From: a virus
Taxonomy: Duplodnaviria > Caudoviricetes
Strand: one strand, 5' to 3'
Virus record (IMG/VR): IMGVR_UViG_3300032046_005782
Location: 1 to 52,532 of that record
Length of the DNA: 52,532 bases
The position numbers and the translations under genes are program-made. The notes beneath the pieces were generated by a model. The model saw only the letters and a program-made list of their open reading frames with translations. It did no database searches and was not told where the DNA came from. Positions 3,617 through 23,869 of this stretch are shown one piece after another; within the stretch, counting starts at the first letter, position 1; every line of letters begins with the position of its first letter.

Positions 3617-3642
3617 GGTACTTGGGCAGGTTGACTATAGCA

Positions 3643-3654
3643 TTGACTTGTCAA
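3643..3654. promoter_or_regulatory. Palindromic operator candidate TTGACTTGTCAA
   Basis: Perfect 5-2-5 palindrome. Identical at 16953, one mismatch at 26310 and 32739, all intergenic. Confidence 0.6.
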
Positions 3655-3675
3655 CCCTACTGCCCAGGAGGGCCT

Positions 3676-7164: not shown

Positions 7165-7390
7165 CTGTTTCCTCCTGCTCTATATACGAACTGGGGTCAA
7201 GAATGATCACCTGGACTGAGGGCCAGGTGGCCAGATGCATGCGCTCAATCAGGCAAAGGGCCAAGGCTTCCTCGATCTTGGCGGTGAGGTGCATCGCGGG
7301 TTCTGCATCGCGTGATTCCTCACAGCGGATAGTTCTGGCCAGGGCCTGGGCCTGGTCGGTTGGTAGATCAACCTTGATGTGTATGATCAT
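7136..7390 (-). CDS. Hypothetical protein, paralogue of 6943-7164
   Basis: CAGGAGGA RBS, downstream of an ECF-like promoter. Confidence 0.8.
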   Translation of the reverse strand: MIIHIKVDLPTDQAQALARTIRCEESRDAEPAMHLTAKIEEALALCLIERMHLATWPSVQVIILDPSSYIEQEETDDHTDESPR

Positions 7391-7426
7391 CTGTTTCCTC
7401 CTGCTCTATATACGAACTGGGGTCAA
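7154..7426. repeat. Exact 47-bp direct repeat (7154-7200 and 7380-7426)
   Basis: tgtatgatcatctgtttcctcctgctctatatacgaactggggtcaa occurs twice. Confidence 0.95.
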
Positions 7427-7439
7427 AAAACTTCAGTTG
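7407..7439 (-). promoter_or_regulatory. ECF-sigma-like promoter, copy 1
   Basis: CAACTGAAG-N16-CGTATA, upstream of an RBS. Confidence 0.75.
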
Positions 7440-8142: not shown

Positions 8143-9896
8143 CCATTCTGGCGGATTTGGTGACCGGTCAATACGTATCGTGGCCACTGGCGCGCAAGGT
8201 TGCGGTACTGGCTGCGCTGCGCAGGTTATCTCCGCCAGAAGACCTGCTCTCCTGGACGATCAAACATCGTCCGTTTCTCATGCGTGATCTTCCCCTCGAC
8301 TTTCGCTCCCATGCGTTCCTTGTCCCAATCTACCAGGATACTTCCCCCAACCTGATTATCTACAAATCCAGCCAGATGGGGGCGAGCGAGTACTTGGTAT
8401 CCTATGCGCTGCATGGGGCTGATCAGCGTAAGGCGACTGTGCTGTACGTGTTCCCGACTGACGTCCATCTGTCTGACTTCTCGTCATCCAGAATCGGGCC
8501 TGCTATCGAGGCGAGCGAATACCTGTCATCCATCGTGGTCGGCGCTGGTGGCCACTCGCGCGGGGCTGACCGGGTGCGGCTGAGGCGGATTAGAGATCGC
8601 TTCCTGTATTTCCGTGGGGCTAAGGTTTCGCCCGATGGGATGGCTCCACAGTTAAAGACGATCGCTGCCGATCTGCTGATCTTCGACGAACTGGACGAGA
8701 TGGATGTGCGGGCTCCGGAGATCGCTCGAAAGCGCCTGGGGCACTCCCGACTCGCCGAGGAGCGCGCGGTATCGACTCCTACCTATCGCAACACGGGCAT
8801 CCATGCACTTTGGCTCCAGTCGGATCAGCGGGAGTGGTTCGTAGTCTGCCCGCATTGTGGCCTGCGCCAGTTTATGGACAGGAAATCCGTTATCCTTGAC
8901 GAGGATGGCCTGGGTCGGCCTATCGCCTGGCATGGCCAGGAGGATGGGACGGCCTGGCCAGCCTGCCGTAAATGTGGCGGCAGGTTGGATCGCCTCGCTC
9001 CCGGCGAGTGGGTGCCGGCCTGCCCTGGGCGGCTGCCGGTTGGCTATCACCTGTGTAAGTTATTTTCTCCCCTGGCGAGCGTTCCGGCCATGCTGGAGGG
9101 TCTGCAGAAACTGGACGAGACGGCCAGGCGCGAGGCTACAAACCAGGACTGGGGGGAGCCGTACATTCCCAGGGGCGGGCAGTTGACGGATGAAATCCTG
9201 GATGCTGCGACTCGGCCCTACAATCACGGGGCTGTTGCGGGCGAACGATCGCGCATGGGCGTCGACGTCGGCGATCTGCTCCACGTCGTGATCCGGGGGC
9301 CTGCCAATCCCGAGACGGGCGATTACCCTCAGCGGTTCGCAGGGACGGTCCAGGAATTCGAGGACGTCGTGGTGCTGATGCACTTGTATAACGTCGAGGT
9401 GTGCATCGTCGATGGTCTGCCGGAGACGCGCGAGGCCAGGCGCTTCCAAGACTCGCTGCCGGGCGGGCGGGTTTGGCGCGCGTACTACGTCACCCAAAAA
9501 ACCGGCCTGAAGCAGGAGGCTGCGATCCAGCCAAACAAGGAGGAGGGGTTCATCAACCTTGACCGCACACGGACGCTCGATGAGATGCTGGCCAGGCTGC
9601 TGGCGGCTGCTGCCGATGCTCCCGGCGCTGATCAGGCACTGGTGATGCCGGCCCAGTCGGCTACCTGTTCCCTGCCTTGCCATGCCAAAGGCATCGAGGG
9701 TTATTATGCTAATCTGAAGGCGCTTGTGCGTGTTCTGGAAGATCATGCCAGTGGGAAGGTTGCGGTGTACCAATCCACTGGGCCTGACCACTTTGCACAC
9801 GCTGAGAATTATTGCGCGGTGGCATGGGCGCTTCCTCGCCCGTTGCCCATGCCTGACCAATCTAAACTCAAGTTGCAGAAATCTGTCTGGAATTAG
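8139..9896 (+). CDS. terL: Terminase large subunit (lambda GpA-like family)
   Basis: KSSQMGASE, LIFDELDEM, VSTPT, SDQREWFVVCPHCG, MGVDVG, DHFAHAENY. Confidence 0.93.
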   Translation: MTILADLVTGQYVSWPLARKVAVLAALRRLSPPEDLLSWTIKHRPFLMRDLPLDFRSHAFLVPIYQDTSPNLIIYKSSQMGASEYLVSYALHGADQRKATVLYVFPTDVHLSDFSSSRIGPAIEASEYLSSIVVGAGGHSRGADRVRLRRIRDRFLYFRGAKVSPDGMAPQLKTIAADLLIFDELDEMDVRAPEIARKRLGHSRLAEERAVSTPTYRNTGIHALWLQSDQREWFVVCPHCGLRQFMDRKSVILDEDGLGRPIAWHGQEDGTAWPACRKCGGRLDRLAPGEWVPACPGRLPVGYHLCKLFSPLASVPAMLEGLQKLDETARREATNQDWGEPYIPRGGQLTDEILDAATRPYNHGAVAGERSRMGVDVGDLLHVVIRGPANPETGDYPQRFAGTVQEFEDVVVLMHLYNVEVCIVDGLPETREARRFQDSLPGGRVWRAYYVTQKTGLKQEAAIQPNKEEGFINLDRTRTLDEMLARLLAAAADAPGADQALVMPAQSATCSLPCHAKGIEGYYANLKALVRVLEDHASGKVAVYQSTGPDHFAHAENYCAVAWALPRPLPMPDQSKLKLQKSVWN

Positions 9897-9905
9897 GAGG
9901 TTACT

Positions 9906-12119
9906 ATGGCCACTCCCTTTAAAGAGTTAGGGTCGACCGGACTCCCCCAATGGGGGGGAATCGTCATGGTCGAGACAGATCCATTACTGCGGGGGCAGTT
10001 GGGGTATCGCACTTTCGACGAGATGCGGTTGCAAGATCCGACAGGAATCGCGATGTATTACCTGCTTTCGCTCCCCATCCGGCGGGTCACGTGGTCGTGT
10101 TTGCCTGGCGGGCAGTCGGAGGCGGATCAGAAGGCTTCCGATTTCGCCTGGTCGTGCTTTGGCGACACTTCCCACTCCTTCAATGATCTAATCGCCGATG
10201 CCTGCCTTATGTTCGTTTATGGGTGGTCCTACTTCCACATGAGCGTGAAACGGCGGGCGGGGGACAAGGGGAAAGCAAAAAGCCAGTTCGACGATGGCCT
10301 GGTCGGCTTTCGGAAAATTGCTTTTCGCTCCCCCTTGACTCTCGACCATTGGGAGTTCGACGAGGAGACGGGGGACATCCAGGGCCTGTGGCAGTACCAG
10401 ATCAAAACGGGCGAGGTCGTGTACATCCCCCTGGGCGAATCGCTCCTGTTCCGGACATCACGCGAGGGAGACAATCCGGAGGGTCTATCGATCTTCCGGC
10501 CTGCGGTCAATCCATACAAGTACAAGAAACGCTTGGCCCAGGTTGAGGGTATTGGCCTGTATCGCCGGTGGGCGGGCTTCCCCTTGATCAAACTGCCCGA
10601 TGGTGCCACTTCGCGGACGGACGTGGCCGAGGGGGAGGTGTCTGACGAACAGCGGGCGGAGGAGTTGGTCAAGGCGATCTACGAGGACAGGATGATGGGG
10701 GCCTTCATCCCCACATCGTGGGATTTGAAGTTTGGTGGTCCAGAGGGTACAATCGACCGGACGATGGGCGACACCATCGTCCGCAAAGACGCGGAAATGG
10801 CGCGATCGATCCTGGCCCAGTGGTTGCTCCTGGGGATGCGCGAGGTCGGGTCACGCTCCCTGGCCGAGACGCTGCAGGGGTCGTTCACCCTGGCGGTGGA
10901 GGCATTCCTGCAGATCATAGAGGACGAGTTGAATCGCTATGCTATCCCCTATCTTTTCCGGTTCAACCCGTGGCCTGGGATGACGTCGTACCCTACCCTG
11001 ACGCATACGTCACCCAGGTCGTTGGACTTGGGCAAAGTTGGCCAGTACATTACTGCCCTGTGCGGGGCTGGTTTCACGATGGATGCTCCAACCGAGAATT
11101 TCCTTCGCTCGCTTGTGCCGGGGATGCCGGAGGCTCCGGTGGAGATGGTTTCTGAACTGCCCGTGGGCGGGGATGGCGAGACAGGGCAAACGGAAGAGAA
11201 ACCCAAACCTGGGAGCGGAGAGGGTACGGGCGAGACGGAGGGAGAAGGCTACTCACGGGTGCGGGTGCCGGCTGGTCGGCGGGAGCAATTTCTCGCCGGT
11301 GGCGCTGAGCGGTTTGGGCCTGTTCCTCCTGAAAGTCGGCCTGCCCAATACGTGACGTTCGTGGATGCCAATGCCGAGGCGCAAAGGCGGAATCTCTCCG
11401 GGTGGGCTGAAGACCTGGCCACAGAAGTGGCGGGCCTGGGGCCCGGGGCGGACGAGGTCACCCTGCGTTCCAAGCTGGACGATCTTCTGCTGGTCGGCCT
11501 GCTGCTGTTCCGGGAAAAGTCGGCGCTAGACATAGCGGCTGCATTCTGGTTGGGGTTCGGTCCGCCGACCGGCGATGCACGGGTGCAGGCGCAGTTGCGC
11601 GCGGAGATCTCGAGGGCGGATGCCTGGATTGGGTACGGGTCTGATGGGCGACTCTCAACCATCAATCCGGCTGGTAAGTCAACCCTATTCGGGGACATCC
11701 GTGGTGAACTGGAGGGCCAGATCGCGGCCATCTTGCTCCTGCTCAAAGAGGGGCGGGAGGACGATGCCTGGATTCTGGTGCACCAGGCGGTTGGGGCTGC
11801 GACTCAGGGGTTTTCTCGCGCGGAGTTGTACGCAGGGGAGGTCTGGCACTCGATTTGGTCGGGGGCTGTCGAACGTGCTATGATTGAGGATCAGCAGCAG
11901 GGATTCCCATCCCCTGTGCGGTGGGTCTTGGACGTCATTGCCAAACACTGCCGGACTTGCCCCAAGTTTGGAGCAGATCCTCCTGGGCGCGAATACCCAT
12001 CCGTCCAGGTGATGCTGGCGCAGACAGGTGGCATCAAACCCGGCCAGGGCACAGAGTGCGATGGTCGGTGCCGGTGTCATCTGGAGCGGTTGTCAAACGG
12101 GGTTTGGGCATGGCTGTAG
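9906..12119 (+). CDS. Portal protein (DUF935/Mu gp29-like) fused to a C-terminal MuF-like head morphogenesis domain
   Basis: Follows terL; NPEGLSIFRP and EMARSILAQWL motifs, an acidic linker, then HCRTC...PGQGTECDGRCRCHLE. Confidence 0.85.
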   Translation: MATPFKELGSTGLPQWGGIVMVETDPLLRGQLGYRTFDEMRLQDPTGIAMYYLLSLPIRRVTWSCLPGGQSEADQKASDFAWSCFGDTSHSFNDLIADACLMFVYGWSYFHMSVKRRAGDKGKAKSQFDDGLVGFRKIAFRSPLTLDHWEFDEETGDIQGLWQYQIKTGEVVYIPLGESLLFRTSREGDNPEGLSIFRPAVNPYKYKKRLAQVEGIGLYRRWAGFPLIKLPDGATSRTDVAEGEVSDEQRAEELVKAIYEDRMMGAFIPTSWDLKFGGPEGTIDRTMGDTIVRKDAEMARSILAQWLLLGMREVGSRSLAETLQGSFTLAVEAFLQIIEDELNRYAIPYLFRFNPWPGMTSYPTLTHTSPRSLDLGKVGQYITALCGAGFTMDAPTENFLRSLVPGMPEAPVEMVSELPVGGDGETGQTEEKPKPGSGEGTGETEGEGYSRVRVPAGRREQFLAGGAERFGPVPPESRPAQYVTFVDANAEAQRRNLSGWAEDLATEVAGLGPGADEVTLRSKLDDLLLVGLLLFREKSALDIAAAFWLGFGPPTGDARVQAQLRAEISRADAWIGYGSDGRLSTINPAGKSTLFGDIRGELEGQIAAILLLLKEGREDDAWILVHQAVGAATQGFSRAELYAGEVWHSIWSGAVERAMIEDQQQGFPSPVRWVLDVIAKHCRTCPKFGADPPGREYPSVQVMLAQTGGIKPGQGTECDGRCRCHLERLSNGVWAWL

Positions 12120-12331
12120 TGGGTGGGATACGGCTGGAGAGGCGCCATTCTCGCCTGCAGGACATCACGAATCGCCTGGCCTGCCTGGGGCCCGGGCTCC
12201 ACATCGTGCTGGTGGTCAAGAATGCTACCGGTGGCCAGGGTATCGTCGGCTGGTCGGTCACATCGACGACTCTCGAACCTAACGGTCAGGTACTGGTGCC
12301 GGCTGAAGAATCTTCCAGTATACCACGGTGA
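12110..12331 (+). CDS. Hypothetical protein
   Basis: ATG overlaps the portal end (MAVVGGIRLERRH...). Confidence 0.55.
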   Translation: MAVVGGIRLERRHSRLQDITNRLACLGPGLHIVLVVKNATGGQGIVGWSVTSTTLEPNGQVLVPAEESSSIPR

Positions 12332-12367
12332 CTCCCCCACATCCGTGGGGGTATCGCAGGGACGCAA

Positions 12368-12400
12368 ACAAACCCCCACCCGAGATGGGTGGGGGTTTGT
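12368..12400. terminator. Bidirectional terminator-like hairpin between convergent units
   Basis: Perfect 14-bp stem acaaacccccaccc-gagat-gggtgggggtttgt. Confidence 0.75.
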
Positions 12401-12901
12401 CTACGGTAGATCAAAGTCAAAGAGGGGGAGTTGCACTCCCTGGGAGACGATTTCTTGCTCCCATACCCAGTAGGCACATGCGTAGCAGGTTTCTCTGTGC
12501 GTGACGACATGATACTGCGGTTCCCTGGCGTCCAGGTTCACGCTGGTAATCTCGCCACTGGCCTGGTGGCGAGATGGTGTGCGGAAGGTGACGAGCATGC
12601 CAACCGCATACCTGGGGGAGGGGCATTCCTCCTGGGAGACGATTTCTTGTTCCCGTACCCAGTAGCCAGTATCACAGTTGGAATGCATGGGGTCGTGTTC
12701 AATCACGACGCAGTACTGGGGTTCATGCCCTTCGAGGCTCACAGCACTGATTTCTTTCGTGAATTGGCGTCCATCGTGGAGCCAGAAGGTCACCAGGTTG
12801 CCTAAGGCATACCTGGGGGATGGGCATCCCCCAGGTACGCTGATGCCGGCCTGCCGGTCAGAACGGGCAGGTTCGGTCGTGGCGACTGCGCCAGTAGGCA
12901 T
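12401..12901 (-). CDS. Hypothetical protein with two tandem SH3-like repeats (start uncertain)
   Basis: CPSPRYA.G.LVTF...EI..V.L...EPQY.VV...YWV.EQEIVSQ occurs twice. Confidence 0.7.
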   Translation of the reverse strand: MPTGAVATTEPARSDRQAGISVPGGCPSPRYALGNLVTFWLHDGRQFTKEISAVSLEGHEPQYCVVIEHDPMHSNCDTGYWVREQEIVSQEECPSPRYAVGMLVTFRTPSRHQASGEITSVNLDAREPQYHVVTHRETCYACAYWVWEQEIVSQGVQLPLFDFDLP

Positions 12902-13340
12902 ACCCTTTGGCGGCGTCTCGGAGTTGGTGGTATGTGGTTTCAGCATCTTCTTCCTCATCCCCCATGCCATACTTGTCCCACATGGCCAGGGCCTGGCGGG
13001 CGGCTGCCAGCAGGTCGGTGTCCAAAGTGTGTTTGGCGTCTTCGAGAACTGTGATGGCCGTGGCCAGGCAGACGCGGTCATGGTCGGTGATATCTGGTAG
13101 ACAGGCGATGCGCTTCGTCGTCCAATCGAGGGCCTGGATCACATCGAAGGGCGGCTGTTGCCTGGCTTCGTCCAGGCAGGGTCGGACTTTGGTGTTGAGG
13201 GCCTTCAGCAGTTCGTCGAGCGCATGGCGCTGGTCATCCACCTTCGGCTTTGGTGTTCCTGCGTTGGTCTTCCTACTCCCCAGGGTGGCCACTGCCAGAG
13301 CAAAGTGGGTGCTTGCACTCTCAATCTGCGTTTCCGCGTG
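12858..13340 (-). CDS. Hypothetical protein, possibly the frameshifted 3' half of 13321-13665
   Basis: Protein-like helical ORF with no clear RBS or start; upper boundary approximate. Confidence 0.55.
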   Translation of the reverse strand, partial: HAETQIESASTHFALAVATLGSRKTNAGTPKPKVDDQRHALDELLKALNTKVRPCLDEARQQPPFDVIQALDWTTKRIACLPDITDHDRVCLATAITVLEDAKHTLDTDLLAAARQALAMWDKYGMGDEEEDAETTYHQLRDAAKGYAYWRSRHDRTCPF

Positions 13341-13665
13341 GCTCCAGGACGATGGCCTGCATGGGACTGGCCAGAGCGAGGAGCGCCTTCCAGAACTGGT
13401 CCAGACCGCGCATGTTGCCAACGTTCAGTACCCAATCGCCCAGGTCGGTTTCCGAACCATCCATGGGGCATCCTGAGCGCGCGATGCTAATCGCCGTCAG
13501 GTGGACATAGACGTCGTTACCATCCACAGCCAGAATCTCGGCGCTGTACTGGCGGGCATGAGGATGGACGTCGTCAGGATTGGCGTTCACCCTGCGATGG
13601 AGGCTGACGGCCAACTTCTCTTGAAAGTATGGCGTCAGCAAACCTAAGACTTGGATTGGTTCCAT
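13321..13665 (-). CDS. Hypothetical array protein
   Basis: CCAGGAGGA RBS after element 1. Confidence 0.8.
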   Translation of the reverse strand: MEPIQVLGLLTPYFQEKLAVSLHRRVNANPDDVHPHARQYSAEILAVDGNDVYVHLTAISIARSGCPMDGSETDLGDWVLNVGNMRGLDQFWKALLALASPMQAIVLEPRGNAD

Positions 13666-13686
13666 AACGGTTCCTCCTGGTCATGA

Positions 13687-13776
13687 TGTCAGGGTTGTGT
13701 TCCCCTGCGGTAGCGCCAGGGCCTGGCGGGCCTGGGGCTACCGCAGGGGAGATGGGTGTCCATCCCATCCCCCCTG
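13687..13776 (-). repeat. Structured intergenic element, copy 1
   Basis: tgtcaggg box, then tcccctgcggtagcgccagg...cctggggctaccgcagggga, then a gatggg/cccatc hairpin (plus-strand reading). Confidence 0.92.
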
Positions 13777-13784
13777 CGCCATGG

Positions 13785-14219
13785 TTACAGGTTCCTGCGG
13801 TGAATCTCGGCCAGCAGTTCTTCGTCGGTAAAGGCGGCGAGGGGGTTGTGTTTGTTCCCCTGCACCATCTCCACCAGGTCGGCTACCTGGGCACGGATGC
13901 GTAATGCCCACCCACGTTCCTTGTCTGTGGTGGCGATGTCTGTGATGGCCAGGTCACCTTCCTGGTTCAGGAGGAGGACGTTGTAGGTGGTAGTATGGTA
14001 CTTCTGGCTACCGCGCGTAGTTGCGGTGACCAGAACCATGGGCGTGGAGACGTCCACTGTGCCGGTGGCGAGGAAGGGGCCAACAAAGGCATACCCTCCT
14101 GTTGCCAGTTCGTCGATACTGGTCACCTGCTTTACCCAAGACTTGAATCGTCCATCGTGGGGCGATCCTTCGTGGCCTGTGACCAGGGCCATCACTTCGG
14201 CGTACAAATCGCGAATCAC
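13785..14219 (-). CDS. Hypothetical array protein
   Basis: GTG start with CAGGAGGA RBS. Confidence 0.85.
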   Translation of the reverse strand: MIRDLYAEVMALVTGHEGSPHDGRFKSWVKQVTSIDELATGGYAFVGPFLATGTVDVSTPMVLVTATTRGSQKYHTTTYNVLLLNQEGDLAITDIATTDKERGWALRIRAQVADLVEMVQGNKHNPLAAFTDEELLAEIHRRNL

Positions 14220-14241
14220 AAGCTAATCCTCCTGTCTAATG

Positions 14242-14335
14242 TGTCAGGGTGTGTTCCCCTGCGGTAGCGCCAGGGTCTGGCGGAGGGCCTGGCGTTACCG
14301 CGGGGGGGGATGGGTATCCATCCCATCCCCCCCTG
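14242..14335 (-). repeat. Structured intergenic element, copy 2
   Basis: Same box, long stem and short hairpin. Confidence 0.92.
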
Positions 14336-14342
14336 GCCTGGG

Positions 14343-14597
14343 TCATCCCCACCTTGCGGCTTCCTGGTCGATGGCGTTCTGCAATCTCTCGAAGGCTGCT
14401 GCTGCTGCTTGCTTTGCGGCTTCGTAGGTTGCATAGTCGTCCATCAAGACCTGGTATGCTGCATCGACCGCATCCTTCGTGGCGGCGAGATCCGTGAAGA
14501 CGGGGTTACTACTCGATGCGATCCATCGCTTGTGGTGGGTGTCCAGTGTGGCGCAGGCGGCTTCGTATCGCGCTTTCAGCAGGGCTAATTCGTTCAT
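14343..14597 (-). CDS. Hypothetical coiled-coil array protein
   Basis: MNELALLKARY... after a CCAGGAGGA RBS. Confidence 0.8.
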   Translation of the reverse strand: MNELALLKARYEAACATLDTHHKRWIASSSNPVFTDLAATKDAVDAAYQVLMDDYATYEAAKQAAAAAFERLQNAIDQEAARWG

Positions 14598-14617
14598 CCC
14601 ATTCCTCCTGGCCTGGG

Positions 14618-15343
14618 TCAGTCGTTGGCCTTCTGACGCTCGACGTCGGTGAGGGTCTTGGCGATGAGGCGGGTGGCTGCTCCATCGCCCACCCACTCTT
14701 TCCACTGTCCATGAGGTGTTTCCCCTGGCAGGCGGTGGACTTCGACACGGTCGGTGTCCCAGTCTGTGATTTTGATGTAGAAGGAAGCGAGGCCCAGGGC
14801 CTGCGCGATGACGCTCCAGGTCCGCAGGTCGTCGGGCTTCACCAACCCCTGCTCCACCAGGGCGATGACGTTACGATTCTTCACACAGTCGAGGGCGCGG
14901 CTTACGTCCAGGTAGGTCTGGACGTCTTCCGGCGTGTACACATAGATGTACTGGGGCGGCTTGCCCCAATCCCGGAGCCACTGGGGGGCAGGCGCTGCTT
15001 CTTCAGGTATGTGCACACCGATGTGCTGAGGCGGCTGCTGCTGGTCAGGGTCTACCCTGCCACTGCCTTGTGCTTCTGCCACAATGATGTCTTCGAGTTC
15101 CTGCTTGTAGCGGGCGAGGCTGTCGACGGTATCGATGGCTCCGATGGTGTAGAGATCCCACATCACCATCGCCTCTTCATCATAGAGGTAGCGGATACCC
15201 TGCGGGGTCACGATCTGCAGTTCGTTGGGCCTGCCGTTGGCCGACAGCGAGACGATGTGTATCGAGGCGATCTGGCTCAGGTCATATACCCAATTGCCTA
15301 TGATCACCCGTTCCGTGGGCCTTGCGTTGTGTACGGTTTGCAT
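14618..15343 (-). CDS. Hypothetical array protein
   Basis: MQTVHNARPT... after a CCAGGAGGA RBS. Confidence 0.85.
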   Translation of the reverse strand: MQTVHNARPTERVIIGNWVYDLSQIASIHIVSLSANGRPNELQIVTPQGIRYLYDEEAMVMWDLYTIGAIDTVDSLARYKQELEDIIVAEAQGSGRVDPDQQQPPQHIGVHIPEEAAPAPQWLRDWGKPPQYIYVYTPEDVQTYLDVSRALDCVKNRNVIALVEQGLVKPDDLRTWSVIAQALGLASFYIKITDWDTDRVEVHRLPGETPHGQWKEWVGDGAATRLIAKTLTDVERQKAND

Positions 15344-15364
15344 GGCGGTTCCTCCTGGTTCTGA

Positions 15365-15456
15365 TGTCAGGGTTAACGTTCCCCTGCGGTAGCGCCAGGG
15401 CCTGGCGGGCCTGGCGTTACCGCAGGGGGAGAGTGTGCAGGGCCACTCTCCCCCTG
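15365..15456 (-). repeat. Structured intergenic element, copy 3
   Basis: Same long stem; the short hairpin is the variant ggggagagtg/cactctcccc. Confidence 0.92.
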
Positions 15457-15461
15457 GCGTG

Positions 15462-15956
15462 TCAGGTGCCACAGTTGCAGGGTGGCTTGGTCACCAGCAT
15501 AAAGTGGTTTGCTGACCACTGCGCGTACTGGGCGGCGTCATCCATCAAGTTGGCGGTCACGAGCGCTTCTGCATTCCGTTCGTCGAGCGCATCCACGGTG
15601 GCCAGCACATTCCCTTCGCCGTCGATGGCGTAGTACGTGAGCGGGTCGGTGGCGTTGATGGGCCATTGCGACTTGGGCATGCGCAGGAGATCGTCGGCGG
15701 AGCAATCTTCCTCGATCCAGGACGGGCGGTGTTCGCGGGGCAACCATCCCTTGATGAAGGCGATGTCACCAGGTTCCATTCCCCCCTGCTCCGCGAGGGC
15801 GCGATCGCTGCGAATGTCAGACCGCTTGGGGTCATCCGGGATGGCGTTCCCCTTCCGGATGCCACACAGCATGACCGGCTGGTCGTGTCGGTAGGATGGG
15901 TACTTGGCGGTGTAGACGTACCAAGCGCCAATGATGCGGGTGTCACCTTGTTCCAT
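15462..15956 (-). CDS. Hypothetical array protein
   Basis: MEQGDTRIIG... after a CCAGGAGGA RBS. Confidence 0.85.
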   Translation of the reverse strand: MEQGDTRIIGAWYVYTAKYPSYRHDQPVMLCGIRKGNAIPDDPKRSDIRSDRALAEQGGMEPGDIAFIKGWLPREHRPSWIEEDCSADDLLRMPKSQWPINATDPLTYYAIDGEGNVLATVDALDERNAEALVTANLMDDAAQYAQWSANHFMLVTKPPCNCGT

Positions 15957-15990
15957 TGCTTGTTCCTCCTGGCGTGATAGGTTCTGGTAC

Positions 15991-16022
15991 TTATACGAGT
16001 TAGCGTGGGAAAACTTCAGTTG
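15991..16022 (-). promoter_or_regulatory. ECF-sigma-like promoter, copy 2
   Basis: CAACTGAAG-N16-CGTATAA; takes the place of the CCCTGACA box of element 4. Confidence 0.75.
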
Positions 16023-16094
16023 TCCCTGCTGTAGCGCCAGGGCCAGGGCGGGCCTGGCGTTACAGCAGGGAGGATGGGTGGCCATCCTTCCCTG
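16023..16094 (-). repeat. Structured intergenic element, copy 4
   Basis: tccctgctgtagcgccagg...cctggcgttacagcaggga with a compensatory G-C to T-A change. Confidence 0.9.
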
Positions 16095-16110
16095 GCGAGC
16101 GGGTCGCAGT

Positions 16111-16371
16111 CTAGTCATTGCCAAACGGGGGACACGGTCGGTCAACGTCATTGATGGGTGTGTGTCCAGCCAGGGCGAGATCCAGGTCACCTGGCTCAGA
16201 CTCTGCCAGTTCGGTGGTGAGCACGAGGACGTGGCGTACTGCAAAGATGGGGTTGCCTTGCGCGTCCAAAAACTCGCATTCCACGGTGTTGGGCGTTTCG
16301 ATCTTTGGCGATCTGATCATGTTCCTGAAGACTGCTACGATTGCGACTGGTTGTCCACCATACGTGATCAT
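16111..16371 (-). CDS. Hypothetical array protein
   Basis: CAGGAGGA RBS. Confidence 0.8.
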   Translation of the reverse strand: MITYGGQPVAIVAVFRNMIRSPKIETPNTVECEFLDAQGNPIFAVRHVLVLTTELAESEPGDLDLALAGHTPINDVDRPCPPFGND

Positions 16372-16393
16372 GCTGTAATCCTCCTGTCTGATG

Positions 16394-16484
16394 TGTCAGG
16401 GTTGTGTTCCCCTGCGGTAGCGCCAGGGCCAAGGCGGGCCTGGCGTTACCGCAGAGGGGATGGGTATCCATCCCATCCCCCCTG
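16394..16484 (-). repeat. Structured intergenic element, copy 5
   Basis: Near-identical to copy 2. Confidence 0.92.
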
Positions 16485-16494
16485 CCCCTGGGCA

Positions 16495-16929
16495 TCAGTA
16501 CTGCCTGAGCAAGATCAGAATCTTACCCCTGCGCAGCAGGTCCAGGCTCTCCATGTCGGGTCGCAGGCGACTCCAACGTTCCTCGAACTGTCGGCGGGCA
16601 TCGGCGAGGTTGAGGGCGCTAACTTCCCCCAGGTACGTTCCTGCCGGGGCATAGGCTGCGAACTGGTCCAGTTGGTACGCTTCGAATCCGGGCTCCAGTT
16701 CGAGCGTGGGGTCATAGGGCGCTGGCCAGGACTGGTCGGGATTGTCGGAGCGGTACACCAGGGCGCTGTTGAAGTGGCCACAGGGCAGGGCAATGGGGAC
16801 GGTGGTACGGGCGATCCGCTTGTCGTGGTAGTGGAACATAACTTCGACCGTGATCTTGTCGGCCTTCCCGCAGTTGTAGCATCTGACCACGGTTCCTGCG
16901 GGGCGGGTGAAGACTGTAATCGTGTTCAT
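16495..16929 (-). CDS. Hypothetical array protein with a possible Zn ribbon
   Basis: CYNC...CGH; CAGGAGGA RBS. Confidence 0.8.
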   Translation of the reverse strand: MNTITVFTRPAGTVVRCYNCGKADKITVEVMFHYHDKRIARTTVPIALPCGHFNSALVYRSDNPDQSWPAPYDPTLELEPGFEAYQLDQFAAYAPAGTYLGEVSALNLADARRQFEERWSRLRPDMESLDLLRRGKILILLRQY

Positions 16930-16985
16930 TGCATAATCCTCCTGCTATCGTCTTGACTTGTCAATCGAGTAAGGTGTTGGTGTTA

Positions 16986-17056
16986 CCCAACCAAAAACCC
17001 AGGCTGCCGGGGGCCTGGGTTTTTGGTTGGGCAGGAGGGCGTCCAACCCTCCTGCC
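16986..17056 (-). repeat. Structured intergenic element, copy 6 (sequence-divergent analogue)
   Basis: Perfect 19-bp stem cccaaccaaaaacccaggc/gcctgggtttttggttggg abutting a ggcaggaggg/ccctcctgcc hairpin. Confidence 0.8.
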
Positions 17057-17075
17057 GTTGCCTGTGGCCACTTCC

Positions 17076-17795
17076 TCATTCCTGTTCCGGGTCGTCGTAG
17101 GACTTGAGGACGGCGAGCGCCTGGTCCATGTCCATCTGCACGGGCGCTTTGATGTGCAGTCGCTCGATGGCGGGCTGGCATGCCCAGTCGGAGGGGCCTT
17201 CGCGGGTGATCCGGTGGACTGGCTTGCCCAGGGTCACGAAAACGTCCAGAACGCTGTCATACCCCTGTTGTGCCAATTCGACCACGAGCATGCGCTGCGC
17301 TTCTCCATCGTTGCGGGCTAAGACGCTCAGAGTGGGGTTGCTGGTTCCCATCTTGACGTGGTCGTCGGTGTAGGCGCTGTACTCGTGGTCCTTGACTTCC
17401 GTGAGCGGGACGTGCTGGCTCAGGCGGGCATCCCACACGGTTTCCGTAAAGCGGGCCTTCTTCTTCGCCAAGCGCAGCAGGACGTCGGCGACTTCCGGGC
17501 GTTTCCAGGATTCTTTGGAATTGAGGGCTGCGCGGGCGGCTTGCGTGGCCAGTTCCAGGCTTTCGAGGTCGCGCGCGGTCACTTCGATGTCGGCTGCGTA
17601 CCATTCTGACCAGTGCTTGTCCCAGGTGCCAGCCTTCTGCTCCTGGCCTTCCTCGATCCTGTTGGCCTGCCAGACGAGGGCAACCACGGGGTTGCCATAC
17701 TCGGTGGTGCGAATCTCCAGGCGCAGGTGCGTGTACTTGTCCCATGCGCCTGGGTCTTCCACCAATACCGTGTAGAGGTAAGTTTGCTTGTTCAC
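17076..17795 (-). CDS. Hypothetical array protein
   Basis: GTG start with CCAGGAGGA RBS; 239 aa. Confidence 0.85.
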   Translation of the reverse strand: MNKQTYLYTVLVEDPGAWDKYTHLRLEIRTTEYGNPVVALVWQANRIEEGQEQKAGTWDKHWSEWYAADIEVTARDLESLELATQAARAALNSKESWKRPEVADVLLRLAKKKARFTETVWDARLSQHVPLTEVKDHEYSAYTDDHVKMGTSNPTLSVLARNDGEAQRMLVVELAQQGYDSVLDVFVTLGKPVHRITREGPSDWACQPAIERLHIKAPVQMDMDQALAVLKSYDDPEQE

Positions 17796-17814
17796 GTCAA
17801 TCCTCCTGGGTTAG

Positions 17815-17945
17815 TGTCAGGATGGCGTTCCCCTGCTGTATCACCAGGGCCTGGGGTAGTCGCTTGCCAGGGCAACCCCTGGGGCAACCTTGCAGGTTCT
17901 GGTGATACAGCAGGGGGGGATGGTTGCTGGCGCTGTCCATCCCCC
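17815..17945 (-). repeat. Structured intergenic element, copy 7 (extra hairpin in the apical loop)
   Basis: cccctgctgtatcaccagggcctg...caggttctggtgatacagcagggg with several compensatory changes. Confidence 0.9.
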
Positions 17946-17958
17946 ACTGCCTGGCTGT

Positions 17959-18447
17959 CTATCGCTCCCATCGGGTCAAGGCACTCATCTGCTTCCATGA
18001 GAGCGGGCGGCTGTACTTGCGCGCGTCGGGCGGGGTTTCGATGTATGAAACTACCTGGTCGCGCAGGCTCCGGCGGAAGTCGGAGCGGAAGTTCTGAACC
18101 GCGAGCAGTTTGGTCAGGGCGACTCGCTCCGTGGGGTTGTCTACGTAGAGCGCCAGGTATACTTGCCAATCCTGGGGCATGTCCTTCGCTCCCTTGATGG
18201 CCCATACGGTTTCCCACTGGCTGGCGTGCTGCGCATATTCATCACCCGTCATCCAGTCGGGGATTTCTACGGGCCTGACTTCCCACTTGTTCACCTGTAC
18301 GGGTCGGAAATCGTCGGGCGAGAAGATGCAAGGCTTCTGTTCCGTCAGGTCTGCGGGGTCGGCGTCACCCTTCCACTCGCGTACAGGCGACTTCGGCGTG
18401 TACGTGAGTTCGCCATAGTGGCGGCAGAGAATCAGTACGGTCTTCAT
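17959..18447 (-). CDS. Hypothetical array protein
   Basis: MKTVLILCRHYG... after a CCAGGAGGA RBS. Confidence 0.85.
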   Translation of the reverse strand: MKTVLILCRHYGELTYTPKSPVREWKGDADPADLTEQKPCIFSPDDFRPVQVNKWEVRPVEIPDWMTGDEYAQHASQWETVWAIKGAKDMPQDWQVYLALYVDNPTERVALTKLLAVQNFRSDFRRSLRDQVVSYIETPPDARKYSRPLSWKQMSALTRWER

Positions 18448-18651
18448 TGTCGAATCCTCCTGGGTATAGTATGCGCCTAGCCAGGCTAATCGGCCACTCG
18501 GCCTGGCCAGGCTACCACACGAACCATTGGACTGCTTGCCCGTCACCCGTCCATCCAGAGCGTGGTGGCTCTCGCGCGTCAATTCGCGCTTCCCATGCCC
18601 AGGTGACTTATAGGGCAGTTTACCGTGGCCTATTCTGCCCCAGGGCTTCCC

Positions 18652-18717
18652 TACCTTCAGCCCAGGCCAGGCCCTGGCCTGGGCTGAAGGTAAGGGGAGC
18701 GTCACTCTCCCCTTACC
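18652..18717 (-). repeat. Structured intergenic element, copy 8 (sequence-divergent analogue)
   Basis: Perfect inverted repeat taccttcagcccaggccagg/cctggcctgggctgaaggta overlapping a ggtaaggggag/ctccccttacc hairpin. Confidence 0.8.
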
Positions 18718-18728
18718 CTTCTTCTTGT

Positions 18729-19148
18729 CTAGTGGTCCAGTTGCAGGGCCAGGCGGGCCTTGCGAACTGCGCGGGTCAAGCGTGGCAGGTATCCTACCTG
18801 CAGGCGGTTCTGCGCAGGAAAGTCGTACTGTAGCGCGCTGATCACTTCCATTCCGAAATCTACGGCTGCGCTTTCCAGGGCGGCGAGCGCCTTGACCGCT
18901 TCGCTCTTGTCGCTCAGGGTGCCGCTGTCTGCGCCATCGGTTTCGTCAAGGAGGGGTTCGTTGCGCAGGGCCAGGCGGGCCTTGCGGACTGCCGTGATCA
19001 GGTTGGGCAGGTATCCTACCTGCAGGCGGGCCTGTGTGGTCGGGTCAAACTTCGTAACTTCGATCACTTCCAGACCAAAGTCTACAGTGGTACTCTCCAA
19101 CTCCTTGAGCGCGTTGACCACTTCACTGTGGCTATAGACTGCGTCCAT
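18729..19148 (-). CDS. Hypothetical array protein with an internal tandem duplication
   Basis: SE.V.AL..LES..VDFG.EVI...RLQVGYLP.L..AVRKARLAL occurs twice; CCAGGAGGA RBS. Confidence 0.85.
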   Translation of the reverse strand: MDAVYSHSEVVNALKELESTTVDFGLEVIEVTKFDPTTQARLQVGYLPNLITAVRKARLALRNEPLLDETDGADSGTLSDKSEAVKALAALESAAVDFGMEVISALQYDFPAQNRLQVGYLPRLTRAVRKARLALQLDH

Positions 19149-19168
19149 CGTTTGTTCCTCCTGGGTAG

Positions 19169-19246
19169 TGTCAGGGTTGCCCCTGCTGTAACCGCAATCC
19201 CTGAGTGGGGTTGCGGTTACAGCAGGGGAGGATTGTCGAATCCTCC
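19169..19246 (-). repeat. Structured intergenic element, copy 9
   Basis: tgtcaggg box, cccctgctgtaaccgcaatccc/ggggttgcggttacagcagggg, then ggaggatt/aatcctcc. Confidence 0.9.
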
Positions 19247-19258
19247 ACCTGGCTGCTG

Positions 19259-19669
19259 CTAGTACCCAAACGCGCGGGCCCAGCGCGTGACTCCGTACCA
19301 CTGCGCTTTCGGTACGGTGTTGATGATCTTGTCGGCGATGGCGTCGAGCTTCTTCGCCAGGGCCAGGCGTTCGTTGTAATCGCCATTCAATCCGAAATCC
19401 GCCGTCATGGGCATGCAATGGTGGCGGTCGTCGGGTGAAACGCTGAAGGCTACCATCCGCCAAATGTAGGCGGTCTCTCCGCCTTCGGTGACCACCTTGC
19501 GTCCACCAAACTCGTCACGCTCGTCCGTTTCGGTGTATACAATCGTCGGCTTGCTTGCGCGCAAGCATCCGGTGTGGTGGTTTACAATCCCCTGGGCGAG
19601 TGCGTGTTCGTCGGCGGTCAAGTTGGCCTGGCTGAGGTCAATCGTCGGGTACGTCCGCCTTGCGGTCAT
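19259..19669 (-). CDS. Hypothetical protein, first gene of the array
   Basis: CCAGGAGGA RBS. Confidence 0.85.
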   Translation of the reverse strand: MTARRTYPTIDLSQANLTADEHALAQGIVNHHTGCLRASKPTIVYTETDERDEFGGRKVVTEGGETAYIWRMVAFSVSPDDRHHCMPMTADFGLNGDYNERLALAKKLDAIADKIINTVPKAQWYGVTRWARAFGY

Positions 19670-20149
19670 TGTATCATTCCTCCTGGGGTTGAATTTATGC
19701 GGTAGTACCGCACCAGCAGTCTACCAGGTTTCTGGTCTGCTGCTGGTGGGGTATTACCCCTGCCGTCTTACCCTCTACTGCTTTTCTCCGCCAGGTCTTT
19801 TTCAGGTTTCCCTGTGTGGTCCAGGAGTTTCCCACCAACCTTGCGTTTCCCAGTCCAACCCTACCTTCCCAGGTTTTGGTTCGGCCAGTCTGCCGGATTC
19901 TCACCGTCGGGTCTTGGCTTTGAGCTTCGCTTTCAGGTTCCCCCTTGCTTAGTTACTCCCTGGGTTCGGGTTTTCCCGTTCTTCCCGTCCCTGCGCTTTG
20001 CGCCTGCCGTGGAGTTTGTCGCTAGAGCGTCCCTTTACTTGCTCTACTCGGCTAGTTTGTTCTGGTGCTACTCTGGCCAGGGCTTCCCCATCTGGTGGCC
20101 AGGCTCCCTGGGGGGCGGCTTCCCCCTTCGTGCTCCCTTACTGTCTATA

Positions 20150-20158
20150 ATCATACCA
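20150..20158 (-). promoter_or_regulatory. Extended -10 promoter candidate for the array
   Basis: TGGTATGAT on the minus strand in an AT-rich patch; no clear -35. Confidence 0.4.
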
Positions 20159-20558
20159 CGCCAAGGTGAACAACGGGTATAGGAACTCTTAAAAAACTAC
20201 TAGAAAACCATTCCGACTTTATCGCCGCTTGCAGAGCATTCCGATTGCGGAGGCCGGCAGGGACATGGTTTGACGTCACCCGAGATCAGGCGAGCGGCTG
20301 GACTCCCCCACCCGGCCCAGGGCGGGCCTGGGGCCTGCGCGGGTCAGGGTTATCAGGCTGATTTGTCAATGCGGCAGTATTCGCATAGTCAAAGGGTTTC
20401 CCTTTTCTGGTGGGTGGGGCGATTCCTGCCCGTTTTGCACTGAATTGGCGTAAAGTAAAAAGTAAGACGAAAGTAAGACACTTCCCCAGGTGTCTTACCT
20501 TGCGCGGGAGGTCCGTCTCGCGCGCGGTCCGCCTCGCCCAGTAGTACCACGATACCTG

Positions 20559-20587
20559 TTGACATTGGCGCGCTTTTGCTGTATAAT
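20559..20587 (+). promoter_or_regulatory. Consensus sigma70 promoter upstream of the lysis/structural operon
   Basis: TTGACA-17 bp-TATAAT, exact. Confidence 0.88.
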
Positions 20588-20833
20588 CTTCATCAGCAGT
20601 AGCGCAATCCTCCTGGGTCTGGTGAGCGTGCTGCGAGTGCTAAAGCCGGAGGAGGGTGCGGGCCCAGACTCCGGCGCGCAATCATCTGGTTCGTTTTCTT
20701 TTTGGGTTCGGGGCCCTGTGGGCAGGGGCGGATGGACTGGCGCTTCTCCTGGGCAGTTCGTCACCCTTGCCCACAGGGCAGTTACTGCGCTATATTTTAC
20801 AATGCAGGTCCACCTGTGCGGGCCTGCGAGGTG

Positions 20834-20910
20834 ATGGAAGGGCAGGAGCCAGGTACGCTGTCGACGTCGTCGTGAGGGCCACTGCAGGGTTCGGACTCCT
20901 GCCCTTCCAT
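20834..20910 (+). other. 15-bp terminal inverted repeat enclosing a tRNA T-arm-like motif (structured leader or degenerate tRNA)
   Basis: atggaagggcaggag...gcagggttcggactcctgcccttccat. Confidence 0.4.
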
Positions 20911-21026
20911 GATCAGAACATCCCCCACCCGGGCCCCAGGGCCTACGGATGGGGAATTGGCCCTGGAACACAGACACACGGGCTACCGGCGAACGGTTGC
21001 CCGTGTTTTGTTTGTGTGGAGGATGC

Positions 21027-22285: not shown

Positions 22286-23869
22286 ATGCCGTACAAGATA
22301 GGGAAGCGGGGGCCTGAGTTCTGTGTACTCAAGGGCTCCGGCCAGGTGGTCAAATGCCATCCTACCTACCAGAAGGCTTTGGCACACCTACGGGCGCTAG
22401 AGGTTAACGTGGAGGATGCGGTCATGGATGGGTTCAGTGGTGGCCATGTCATTGACCAGGGCCTGTTCCTGGATTTGCTCTCAGATCCTGCCATCGGTCA
22501 GCGGGTGTTGGCAGGGGAGCCAGTCGTTATCATCCCCAGGGGCCCGTTTGTGCGGGGCGGGGTCACCCGTGACATCACGGATGCGGTAGTCGGGCAGTTC
22601 GTCGGAAACTGGGAACATCGCCTCGACCGGGGTATCCGGCGCAGGCAGTTGGCCGTCGACACCGACCACGATGGTCGGGCGGTCGGCTGGTTCACCAACG
22701 TGCTTCCCATGGATGGTGGGGTCGGGGCGGCCTTCCGGTGGAATCGGAAGGGGCGCGAGGCGCTTCAAGAAGCAGAGTACGCATACTTCAGTCCCACCAT
22801 CTACTGGTGGCAGGAGGATGCAAAGGGAGAGGCGGTCGAGAATCAGTTGGGCGGTGGGGCGATGACCAACTATCCCTTTTTCGGCGAGGCGACTGCGCTT
22901 TACTCCATGCAATCCGTGGCCATCCCAGGTGGCGGGGCGGTGTGGTATGCGATCACGAAGAGCGAGGGCGGGGTCGAGTACCCTGCTCGTGCATACCTGG
23001 TCGTCGAGAACTCCGAGAAACCCGCTACCTGGCACTTGCGGGTCTACTCCCTGAAAGACGGCAAACTGGTACTGGATCATGGGTTGATGGGCGCTGCCAA
23101 AGCGGCGCTTACTTCACCCGGTGGCCACAGGGGTCGGAAGTACGAGGGCCCTGGCAAGCAGGAGGCTACCGGCAAACTCAAGGCTCTATACGAGAGCGAG
23201 GGCCTTGATTGGAATCGAGACGCTGGAGGTGACGATATGTCTGGACAATCTGGCGAGGGTCTGCCCACTTTGCTTCAGCAGGTGGTAGACTTCTTCTCGC
23301 GTAGTGGCGGGACTCCGCCACAAACCACTCCCGGTGCCGGCCCAGGCGCTGGCACTGGCGGTGTCGTATTGGATGAGGCGACACGTCAGCAGTTGGCCCA
23401 GGTGGCTACCCTGAGCACGCAGGTGGCTACCCTGACCACGGAGCGTGACACGTTCGCCTCGCGGGTGCAGGCGCTGGAGCAATCCCTGGCCGTGACCGAG
23501 GGCGCGCGGATGCTGGAGCGGTTCACTCAGATGGCGCGCGAGCAATTCGGCCATCTGCCCTGCGCCACTGGTGACCTGGCTGCTCATCTGGCCTGGCTCT
23601 ATCGGGCGGACTCCGAACAGAACCAACCCCATGCGGCGTTCTTCTCTACCCTGCTTGCCAATGCGGATGCCCAATTCGTGCAGACATTCCGTGAGCGTGG
23701 CCACACAGGGACGCAGGGCGGGTCGGCGCTGGAGCGCGTGCAAACGGCGGTCACGGCCTTCATGAAGGAGCATCAGGGCGTGACCTATGAGAGCGCGCTG
23801 TCGGAAGTCTTCCGGCTACAGCCTGACCTGTATGCGCTGTACAACCAGGAGCGGGAGGTGTCACAATGA
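22286..23869 (+). CDS. Prohead protease/scaffold (Mu gpI-like)
   Basis: VDTDHD.RAVGW, YAYFSPTI, GGAMTNYPFF and a coiled-coil C-terminus. Confidence 0.85.
   Translation: MPYKIGKRGPEFCVLKGSGQVVKCHPTYQKALAHLRALEVNVEDAVMDGFSGGHVIDQGLFLDLLSDPAIGQRVLAGEPVVIIPRGPFVRGGVTRDITDAVVGQFVGNWEHRLDRGIRRRQLAVDTDHDGRAVGWFTNVLPMDGGVGAAFRWNRKGREALQEAEYAYFSPTIYWWQEDAKGEAVENQLGGGAMTNYPFFGEATALYSMQSVAIPGGGAVWYAITKSEGGVEYPARAYLVVENSEKPATWHLRVYSLKDGKLVLDHGLMGAAKAALTSPGGHRGRKYEGPGKQEATGKLKALYESEGLDWNRDAGGDDMSGQSGEGLPTLLQQVVDFFSRSGGTPPQTTPGAGPGAGTGGVVLDEATRQQLAQVATLSTQVATLTTERDTFASRVQALEQSLAVTEGARMLERFTQMAREQFGHLPCATGDLAAHLAWLYRADSEQNQPHAAFFSTLLANADAQFVQTFRERGHTGTQGGSALERVQTAVTAFMKEHQGVTYESALSEVFRLQPDLYALYNQEREVSQ

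Follow-up and report, generated by a model that had tools for sequence, protein, structure and literature searches.

The linear IMG/VR virus record IMGVR_UViG_3300032046_005782 (Duplodnaviria; Caudoviricetes), which is estimated to be 95% complete and was analysed over its whole length of 52,532 nucleotides (nt; called the window in the following), contains an island of minus-strand genes that are separated by a repeated non-coding module of two abutting hairpins. This module keeps its structure while its sequence changes, is conserved in related phages, is restricted to the island, and is the place at which the genes of the island are shuffled. Based on its covariation, it may represent a new family of RNA in uncultivated phages. 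With a probability of roughly 45%, we think that it would be a processing, stability or insulation module between the cistrons of a polycistronic phage messenger RNA (mRNA), in the manner of an RNase III site, and we infer that it acts as RNA and mediates cleavage and stabilisation.

The array consists of eleven co-oriented genes on the minus strand (13321-19669), each with CAGGAGGA upstream as seen in a scan for open reading frames (ORFs) anchored on ribosome-binding sites (RBSs), and modules occupy nine of the ten gaps between these genes (13.3-19.7 kb); only the 20-nt gap at 14598-14617 is devoid of one. On the mRNA strand, i.e. the minus strand, the stop codon is followed by CAGGG (segment 1, 6-12 nt past most stop codons), by a short GC-rich hairpin and by an abutting long hairpin of 20-24 base pairs (bp). 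The latter is opened by CCCTGC (segment 2), which continues from the 3' arm of the short hairpin, spans about two turns of the helix, which mostly contain one mismatch, and is closed by GCAGGG (segment 3). Its arms measure 19-27 nt and are 81-100% complementary. The final part is a CCCTG(A/C) box (segment 4) that lies 4-31 nt past segment 3 and 10-17 nt ahead of GGAGG; this second distance is 10-12 nt in the window, where six gaps have a box of the CCCTGACA type, 13-17 nt in the related phage L010 and 13 nt in the related phage L009. The arms of the short hairpin differ among copies (GGGGGGATGGG/CCCATCYCCCC, GGGGGAGAGTG/CACTCTCCCCC, GGAGGATT/AATCCTCC and others). The coordinates of all copies, labelled IG1 to IG10 by gap, are collected in Table 1 together with their folding and covariance-model scores.

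The three copies with a promoter-like sequence behind them (IG5 in the window, copy c in L010 and copy b in L009) keep both hairpins and are devoid of the box. In IG5 its place between the long hairpin and the RBS is taken by a promoter-like copy of the repeat D6, and in L009 b the promoter-like sequence is the consensus TTGACA-17-TGTATAAT. D6 itself is a 31-nt repeat with five minus-strand copies in the window (7183-7213, 7409-7439, 15992-16022, 49325-49355 and 50466-50496). It reads CAACTGAAGTTTT...CGTATA(A/T)AG on that strand, lies upstream of minus-strand genes and probably serves as a promoter or regulator site that is specific to the phage. The box as such was also considered as part of a sigma-70 promoter, formed by its CTGACA and a downstream -10 element; this was rejected, as the spacer would contain the RBS and no conserved -10 element was visible by eye.

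An earlier examination of the letters alone, referred to here as the sequence-only reading, had described these repeats as copies of a structured element, and the observation is real: the direct-repeat families D1, D2, D4, D5 and D12 cover 13687-19244, and of the ten inverted repeats that are longest in the 52.5-kb window, nine fall at 13.7-19.8 kb. The stem-base pattern, with up to one mismatch permitted, has six forward and six reverse sites, all at 13703-17915, and none in the reversed control, and the pattern CCTGACA-N4-10-CAGGAGGA has six matches, all on the minus strand in the module region (expected 0; maximum 0 in 100 shuffles). When folded as RNA of the mRNA strand, all nine module-containing intergenic stretches reach z scores of -3.8 to -7.3, and none of 200 dinucleotide shuffles was as stable in any of the nine cases.

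The details of the structural description also held. The compensatory swaps it named could be confirmed, namely G/C versus T/A at stem position 7 and AGCGCC/GGCGTT versus ATCACC/GGTGAT. Its copy with a hairpin added in the loop corresponds to the long hairpin of IG8, in which the 39 nt between the arms make a stem of their own, and its copy with a new upper stem to that of IG10. The two copies said to have unrelated stems are IG7 and IG9, the stem of the latter with arms of 23 nt that are 96% complementary. Both contain CCCAGG/CCTGGG near the apex, which is weaker evidence than it seems because CCWGG is over-represented genome-wide: there are 552 copies (10.5 per kb), 3.2-fold the mononucleotide expectation, in coding and non-coding sequence alike. 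The short hairpin pairs in all seven canonical window copies in spite of its differing arms, with folding energies (dG) from -14.7 to -28.1. The claim of a new cis-acting motif is fair, since Rfam holds no matching family: the search of Rfam 15 gave no match at gathering scores, and at E <= 1 only sub-threshold generic hairpins were found, i.e. microRNA precursors and one small-RNA family with 24.7-30.7 bits versus cut-offs of 52-100 bits. A self-cleaving ribozyme was rejected, as Rfam gave no match here either and nothing points to self-cleavage. Taken as a whole, the interpretation offered by the sequence-only reading is partly supported.

A portal search led to ten viral loci, two of which, L010 (79% best-segment portal identity) and L009 (59%), possess the same module in syntenic minus-strand islands. 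A covariance model that was run over 87 sources, comprising 650 kb of pre-selected loci, added two short fragments near L010 (L104 and L082, metagenome matches to the stem base). Its hits in the window are seven canonical and two divergent copies, all at 13.7-19.3 kb, and the six full-length hits in a complete 64.7-kb relative are likewise confined to its island, in a stretch of about 4.2 kb. The window-type box pattern matched none of the viral contigs. The L010-type pattern matched 58 viral contigs, with two matches in the L010 contig only and a single match in each of the other 57, which fell outside the covariance-model search and may hide relatives. The stem-base palindrome was found in 49 metagenome and 31 genome stretches, none of which has several sites; the covariance model retained L104 and L082 alone as true relatives, and the remaining matches to the pattern are lone palindromes without relation to the module. 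A locus in a metagenome-assembled genome of Anaerolineae (L153, 45.8 bits) was rejected as a relative: it is a lone palindrome behind a host gene, with the order of the hairpins reversed and no protein homology to the phage.

The covariation alignment comprised 15 canonical copies from the three phages (seven of the window, six of L010 and two of L009, with L009 b and the copies of L104 and L082 excluded). In the long stem of 20 pairs, 91% of the cells are paired and nine of the 20 pairs have changed on both sides, in 34 cells, so that structure is kept over sequence as had been claimed. The covariation score is 0.299, compared to 0.079 ± 0.015 for shuffled alignments, and none of 500 shuffles reached it; this count must not be read as a probability, because the copies are linked by descent and by homogenisation within the genomes. 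Sliding the partner by 1-3 columns lowers the pairing to 31-46%, and RNAalifold, applied to a 13-copy alignment, finds compensatory changes in seven of 16 pairs. The two non-homologous stems behave likewise in the comparison with L010: that of IG7 shows two double changes with pairing retained, and in that of IG9 TTCAG/CTGAA is replaced by ACTAG/TTAGT, again with pairing retained. Between the window and L010, the intergenic stretches are 75-86% identical versus 62-77% for the nine flanking orthologous genes, and as the gaps are thus more conserved than the genes around them, selection on the non-coding module is at least as strong as that on the proteins.

Within the long stem, positions 7-20 covary and positions 1-6 are invariant, which fits a constraint by several partners, i.e. 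segments 1 and 4, or recognition by a protein. The four segments CAGGG, CCCTGC, GCAGGG and CCCTG are alternately complementary and permit two folds with an equal number of helices, either a three-way junction (pairing 2:3 plus 1:4) or three tandem hairpins (1:2 plus 3:4). Covariation cannot choose among these folds, because the segments never vary. Pairing ensembles were predicted for 13 copies: the three-way junction dominates in three (window IG1, L010 d and L010 g), the tandem hairpins in another three (window IG6, L010 a and L009 a) and a pairing of segment 4 with the CAGG of the RBS in two (window IG8 and IG10), the remaining copies being mixed. The three-way junction closed by pairing of the 5' CAGGG with the CCCTG of the box, as put forward in the sequence-only reading, is thus possible in these models. 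Segment 4 is present in all 13 copies that are directly followed by the RBS, keeps a near-constant spacing to GGAGG while its spacing to segment 3 varies, and is separated from segment 3 in L009 by the insertion of an entire hairpin. These three observations suggest that segment 4 is a true partner or signal and does not occur by chance.

The fixed distance of the box to GGAGG, the invariant stem base beneath a covarying upper stem, and the ability of segment 4 to pair with the CAGG of the RBS, which dominates in IG8 and IG10, could also be understood if the module were a translational operator or enhancer. The CCCTGC/GCAGGG stem base and the box would then form the site of an RNA-binding protein, or the module would be a bistable RBS switch as proposed for the repeats SAS and ESAS. 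As described in PMC3203893, SAS is an RBS-containing repeat of unknown function before a subset of the non-structural genes of Cluster K mycobacteriophages, and ESAS are imperfect inverted repeats with a variable spacer and a subcluster-specific consensus. The likeness of the module to ESAS as described there is that imperfect inverted repeats with a variable spacer are found directly upstream of a conserved RBS repeat, which lends some support to an operator (PMC3203893). However, the sequences described in that report are different: the 13-bp GGGATAGGAGCCC of SAS at the start site is not found here, the context of the module being CCCTGACA and then CAGGAGGA, and ESAS is described as one 17-bp inverted-repeat pair of unrelated sequence, whereas the module has two abutting hairpins with stems of 20-24 bp (PMC3203893). 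Furthermore, no candidate RNA-binding protein was identified among the array genes, which lack family assignments, a helix of 20-24 bp plus a second hairpin far exceeds a typical operator, and the promoter-followed copies lose the box but retain both hairpins. We therefore regard an operator as unlikely.

In the processing reading that we prefer, the long helix would be the signal for a double-strand-specific endonuclease, either RNase III of the host or an equivalent enzyme, and cutting would turn the long operon RNA into units. In the upstream unit, the short hairpin, extendable by pairing of segments 1 and 2, would remain to protect the 3' end, and the downstream unit would start just ahead of its own RBS, where segments 3 and 4 could refold. 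The expression of each cassette would in this way become independent of that of its neighbors. A role in expression is supported by the polarity of the modules, by the box being tied to the RBS and by its loss behind promoters. The layout of the array is that of an operon: a promoter region, a leader of about 480 nt that ends with a long hairpin ahead of the first gene, the genes with the modules between them and a U-tract terminator. The eleven genes would presumably be on one transcript.

This layout resembles that of the T7 early operon, which contains the RNase III sites R0.3, R0.5, R1, R1.1 and R1.3. Common to both are the promoter region, the leader, the terminator at the end, and hairpins of about two turns that precede the first gene and separate later ones; the small internal irregularity of most hairpins might correspond to that of the T7 sites, and the upstream RNA would retain a 3' hairpin. 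On the other hand, the sequences are unrelated, the module adds the abutting short hairpin and the RBS-tied CCCTG box, its four alternately complementary segments have no T7 counterpart, and cleavage of the module is putative. A further likeness by description is the plastid intercistronic expression element, which mediates the processing of polycistronic RNA into stable, translatable units; it belongs to a different system, and the likeness, as far as the description in PMC2230500 goes, would be that of an intercistronic processing role.

Strong GC-rich hairpins after nearly every gene, a conserved leader of about 480 nt ahead of the array, and, in each of the three phages, one module with a promoter-like sequence immediately behind it would also be in line with U-less attenuators. 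Pause or termination hairpins would then be read through by a polymerase modified at the leader, which would give graded or timed expression, with an internal promoter restoring transcription. A comparable arrangement are the PeSL (promoter-early stem-loop) cassettes of T4-type phages, in which a strong promoter and a terminating stem-loop are paired between non-essential ORFan genes in a hyperplastic region. Such cassettes mark the borders at which related phages differ by insertions, deletions and replacements, as is the case for the modules (described in PMC2839356). Compared to this description of PeSL, a promoter-like sequence follows only one of the nine window modules (IG5), and the hairpins are without U-tracts (PMC2839356). 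Indeed, in all 16 canonical copies neither hairpin is followed by a U-run, and a canonical intrinsic terminator was rejected on the same grounds, as the GC-rich hairpin is there but the U-tract is missing. The phage does use canonical U-tract terminators elsewhere: a terminator scan of the minus strand flags only IG7 (17011-16998), 12389-12375, 20501-20470 and 21217-21203. In IG7 it is the upper part of the hairpin together with UUUUUGGUU that resembles an intrinsic terminator. Moreover, the leader matches no known antitermination RNA in Rfam. Attenuation is therefore, in our opinion, rather improbable.

Several findings weigh against the processing reading. The predicted pairing ensembles of the 13 copies are not uniform, as the dominant pairing is of three different kinds. 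The phage itself encodes no RNase III, and neither its host nor the RNases of the host can be inferred from cultured phages, because cultured relatives share less than 40% capsid identity (in tblastn with the capsid against cultured phages, all identities are below 60% and the best is 37%). Among the listed sequencing runs, none labelled as RNA contains the region 12300-21000. Finally, in nine of the ten window gaps and in most gaps of L010 and L009, the fold of the plus strand is more stable than that of the mRNA strand. This is due to the transition-type mismatches of the canonical long stems (Table 1), which in the mRNA oppose A to C and in the other strand G to T; counted by eye, there are about 8-9 separate A·C events versus two G·U. 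In most canonical copies, one mismatch, either A·C or C·C, interrupts the stem at positions 11-14 or 18-19; the stem of L010 c is perfect. An RNA selected for stability should show the opposite bias. A general mutation bias explains this asymmetry poorly, because it is reversed in some short hairpins and in the IG9-type stems, where the mRNA strand has G·U; the IG9-type stems also fold better on that strand. A Vsr/Dcm-type explanation for the G·T positions was rejected, as the mismatches are not at the inner C of CCWGG. Either the A·C mismatch serves as a desired soft spot of the RNA helix, for example to guide cleavage, or the plus strand is the one on which the long hairpin acts.

The order of the genes in the island differs between the window and L010 by units of a gene plus its downstream module. 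In the window, the leader is followed by a gene for 136 amino acids, IG10, a 139-amino-acid gene, IG9 and a 162-amino-acid gene, and in L010 by a 67-amino-acid gene, an IG9-type module, the 136-amino-acid gene, an IG10-type module and the 162-amino-acid gene. The window has two additional genes between IG1 and the orthologue of the 210-amino-acid gene of L010, and L010 has one additional gene. The type of the long hairpin differs at one orthologous position (window IG6 versus L010 d), and in the fragment L104 the short hairpin of window IG8 is joined to an IG10-type long hairpin. Contigs of related phages from three other metagenomes (80% likeness) join within modules, for example from 13763 to 14328 and from 14279 to 15406, apex to apex, and at further places; in the joint from 16493 to 16944, 452 other letters lie between, i.e. 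a replaced gene. At 80% likeness such joints may stem from repeats or from other organisms, but they agree with the direct comparison of the genomes. Contigs of the same strain (run X2) stop at or between modules, as repeats do in assemblies. From these comparisons, the repeated modules are, as a by-product, the homologous joints for gain, loss, replacement and permutation of cassettes. For SAS and ESAS, the description in PMC3203893 reports no such shuffling.

These rearrangements, together with the growth of the island from about 3.5 kb in L009 to 8.8 kb in the window and its absence in L011, L016 and L017, could reflect a function at the level of DNA. Plus-strand hairpins of single-stranded DNA, which would match the G·T mismatches on that strand, the invariant stem ends and the variable centre and terminal structure, would then be attC-like recombination sites of an unidentified recombinase, or, in a weaker form, joints of homologous recombination that persist because they promote exchange; the hairpin types swapped at orthologous positions, the recombined hairpins of L104 and the contigs joining inside modules agree with this. 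Yet the 95%-complete record has no match to the tyrosine recombinase family PF00589, for which the control was positive in 14 of 14 genomes, and none to the serine recombinase family PF00239. The box at its fixed distance to the RBS and its loss behind promoters point to expression, the IG9-type stems favor the mRNA strand, and the contig joints at 80% likeness may arise from ordinary homologous recombination between repeats. Moreover, homology alone would not demand compensatory changes. We consider a primary role in DNA recombination quite improbable. The attC sites of integrons are imperfect palindromes with conserved ends and the core sites RYYYAAC/GTTRRRY. In architecture only, the array has much in common with them: its cassettes are co-oriented, promoterless and served by one upstream promoter, each finishes with an imperfect palindrome whose ends are conserved and whose centre and terminal structure vary, structure is kept over sequence, and the non-coding strand folds better. 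In contrast to integrons, there is no integrase, the stem ends are CCCTGC/GCAGGG, with no RYYYAAC/GTTRRRY visible by eye, and the sites are RBS-tied and in a phage context. That the array is integron-like without a known integrase, its plus-strand single-stranded hairpins being the substrate of an unrecognised structure-specific recombinase of the phage or the host and its mRNA features being secondary, seems very unlikely to us.

Several near-identical copies in one genome (IG1, IG2, IG4, IG5 and IG6), which are more alike within a genome than the orthologues are between genomes, could finally be seen as the trace of a selfish miniature palindromic element of the REP or MITE type that has spread through the gaps. 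We give little credence to this idea. The copies sit at orthologous positions in three phages and inside the island only, no multi-copy contigs were found elsewhere in the viral, metagenome and genome collections scanned, and the similar palindrome of the Anaerolineae genome is a lone copy behind a host gene, with its hairpins in reverse order. Orientation and spacing to stop codon and RBS are fixed in every copy, and no transposase was found. REP/BIME or MITE elements differ accordingly from the module, for which no dispersed chromosomal copies were found.

The island that houses the modules is 8.8 kb long in the window and contains about 13 minus-strand ORFan genes at 12.4-20.2 kb, inserted between the genes for the portal and the amidase and head protease. 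In L010 it measures about 8 kb, and in the more distant L011, L016 and L017 the protease directly follows the portal. Pfam and PHROG gave no function for the ten array genes at 13321-19148, and Pfam gave no match for the eleventh (19259-19669); orthologues of array genes in L010 and L009 are 40-73% identical at the amino acid level. Part of the gene at 18729-19148 is duplicated in tandem, as seen from the repeats D11, D14 and D15 with a spacing of 222 nt, and the L010 homologue of this gene is a single unit of 67 amino acids that matches both halves. A third hairpin in IG9 at 18475-18512 on the minus strand (GCCTGGCCAGGC...GCCTGGCTAGGC) belongs to a block that is near-identical in L010 within diverged surroundings, and may be a separate small RNA or protein site. 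The leader is conserved in L010 and partly in L009, has no match in Rfam, and is preceded by the extended -10-like sequence TGgTATGAT at 20158-20150. The hairpin at its end aligns with the L010 leader, and L009 has a canonical module at that place. The hairpin at the end of the island, which separates the last island gene from the convergent portal gene, has a counterpart in L010 at 12506-12544; by its sequence it is likely a bidirectional terminator, and it shows canonical U-tract terminators in use in this phage. Divergent from the promoter region of the island, a perfect consensus sigma-70 promoter (TTGACA-17-TATAAT, 20559-20587, plus strand) is directed toward the amidase and head genes.

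Further genes of the window encode ParA, an FtsK-like ATPase and an amidase. The minus-strand region 3-3470 comprises the FtsK/SpoIIIE-like ATPase, ParA and a weak match to Phd/YefM-like antitoxins, which together with the missing integrase suggests a plasmid-like or partition-dependent lifestyle. A 48-nt unit is repeated three times in tandem at 490-633 within the FtsK-like ORF region, two of the units being identical (family D8). No tRNA genes were found in the window, and a blastn search with 13000-20000 against cultured phages gave zero matches.

Table 1. Module copies and other features of the window; stem positions are counted within the long hairpin.
Feature	Positions	Strand	Short hairpin	Long hairpin	Box	GGAGG or RBS	Fold z	Covariance-model score (bits)	Remarks
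Module IG1	13666-13784	-	13745-13775	13701-13750	13687-13694	13673-13677	-5.19	101.4	
Module IG2	14220-14342	-	14303-14333	14256-14306	14242-14249	14228-14232	-4.41	87.0	
Module IG4	15344-15461	-	15424-15455	15381-15428	15365-15372	15351-15355	-5.56	93.9	
Module IG5	15957-16110	-	16067-16107	16023-16071		15965-15969	-4.77	77.1	no box
Module IG6	16372-16494	-	16454-16494	16409-16457	16394-16401	16380-16384	-3.77	100.8	
IG7	16930-17075	-	GGCAGGAGGG/CCCTCCTGCC	16986-17031			-4.80		non-homologous; perfect 19-bp long hairpin
Module IG8	17796-17958	-	17912-17952	17830-17916	17815-17822 (TCCTGACA)	17802-17806	-7.25	80.7	
IG9	18448-18728	-	present	18649-18695			-5.29 (18629-18728)		non-homologous; 23-bp long hairpin, then further structured RNA
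Module IG10	19149-19258	-	19224-19250	19180-19228	19169-19176 (CCCTGACA)	19157-19161	-6.86	82.4	
A·C mismatches, window	stem position 11 in IG2, IG4, IG5, IG6; 4 in IG2; 18 in IG10; 18-19 in IG8								
A·C mismatches, relatives	stem positions 18-19 in L010 d, f; 14 in L010 a, b								others in L009
Array genes	13321-13665, 13785-14219, 14343-14597, 14618-15343, 15462-15956, 16111-16371	-							
Array genes (continued)	16495-16929, 17076-17795, 17959-18447, 18729-19148, 19259-19669	-							
Leader	19670-20200	-							untranslated, purine-rich, ~480 nt; repeated (G/A)AACCTG motifs
Hairpin at leader end	19701-19758	-							imperfect, 27 bp (inverted repeat I1); ~20 nt before RBS of first gene (19259-19669)
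Hairpin at island end	12363-12405								A-rich and T-rich flanks; between convergent portal gene and last island gene
gpA-type terminase	8139-9896								
Mu-type portal	9906-12119								
Mu-I-like head protease	22286-23869								
ParB-N6/N4 methylase	3595-5133								

The module is of a known kind, namely that of the repeated intercistronic hairpin elements of phage operons. Its own features are the abutting hairpins, the four invariant and alternately complementary segments, the RBS-linked box, the systematic A·C mismatch and the restriction to an ORFan island that is growing within the head-gene module. The A·C mismatch in an otherwise perfect two-turn helix poses a concrete puzzle, and the shuffling at modules is a second, independent example of the PeSL principle outside the T4-type phages. 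If the module is indeed a device for RNA processing or insulation, it would be a natural counterpart of the "insulators" of synthetic operons. The portable unit would then consist of a gene with its 3' protector, a defined 5' end and an RBS, and this would explain how the accessory genes of these phages can be shuffled freely without their expression being broken.

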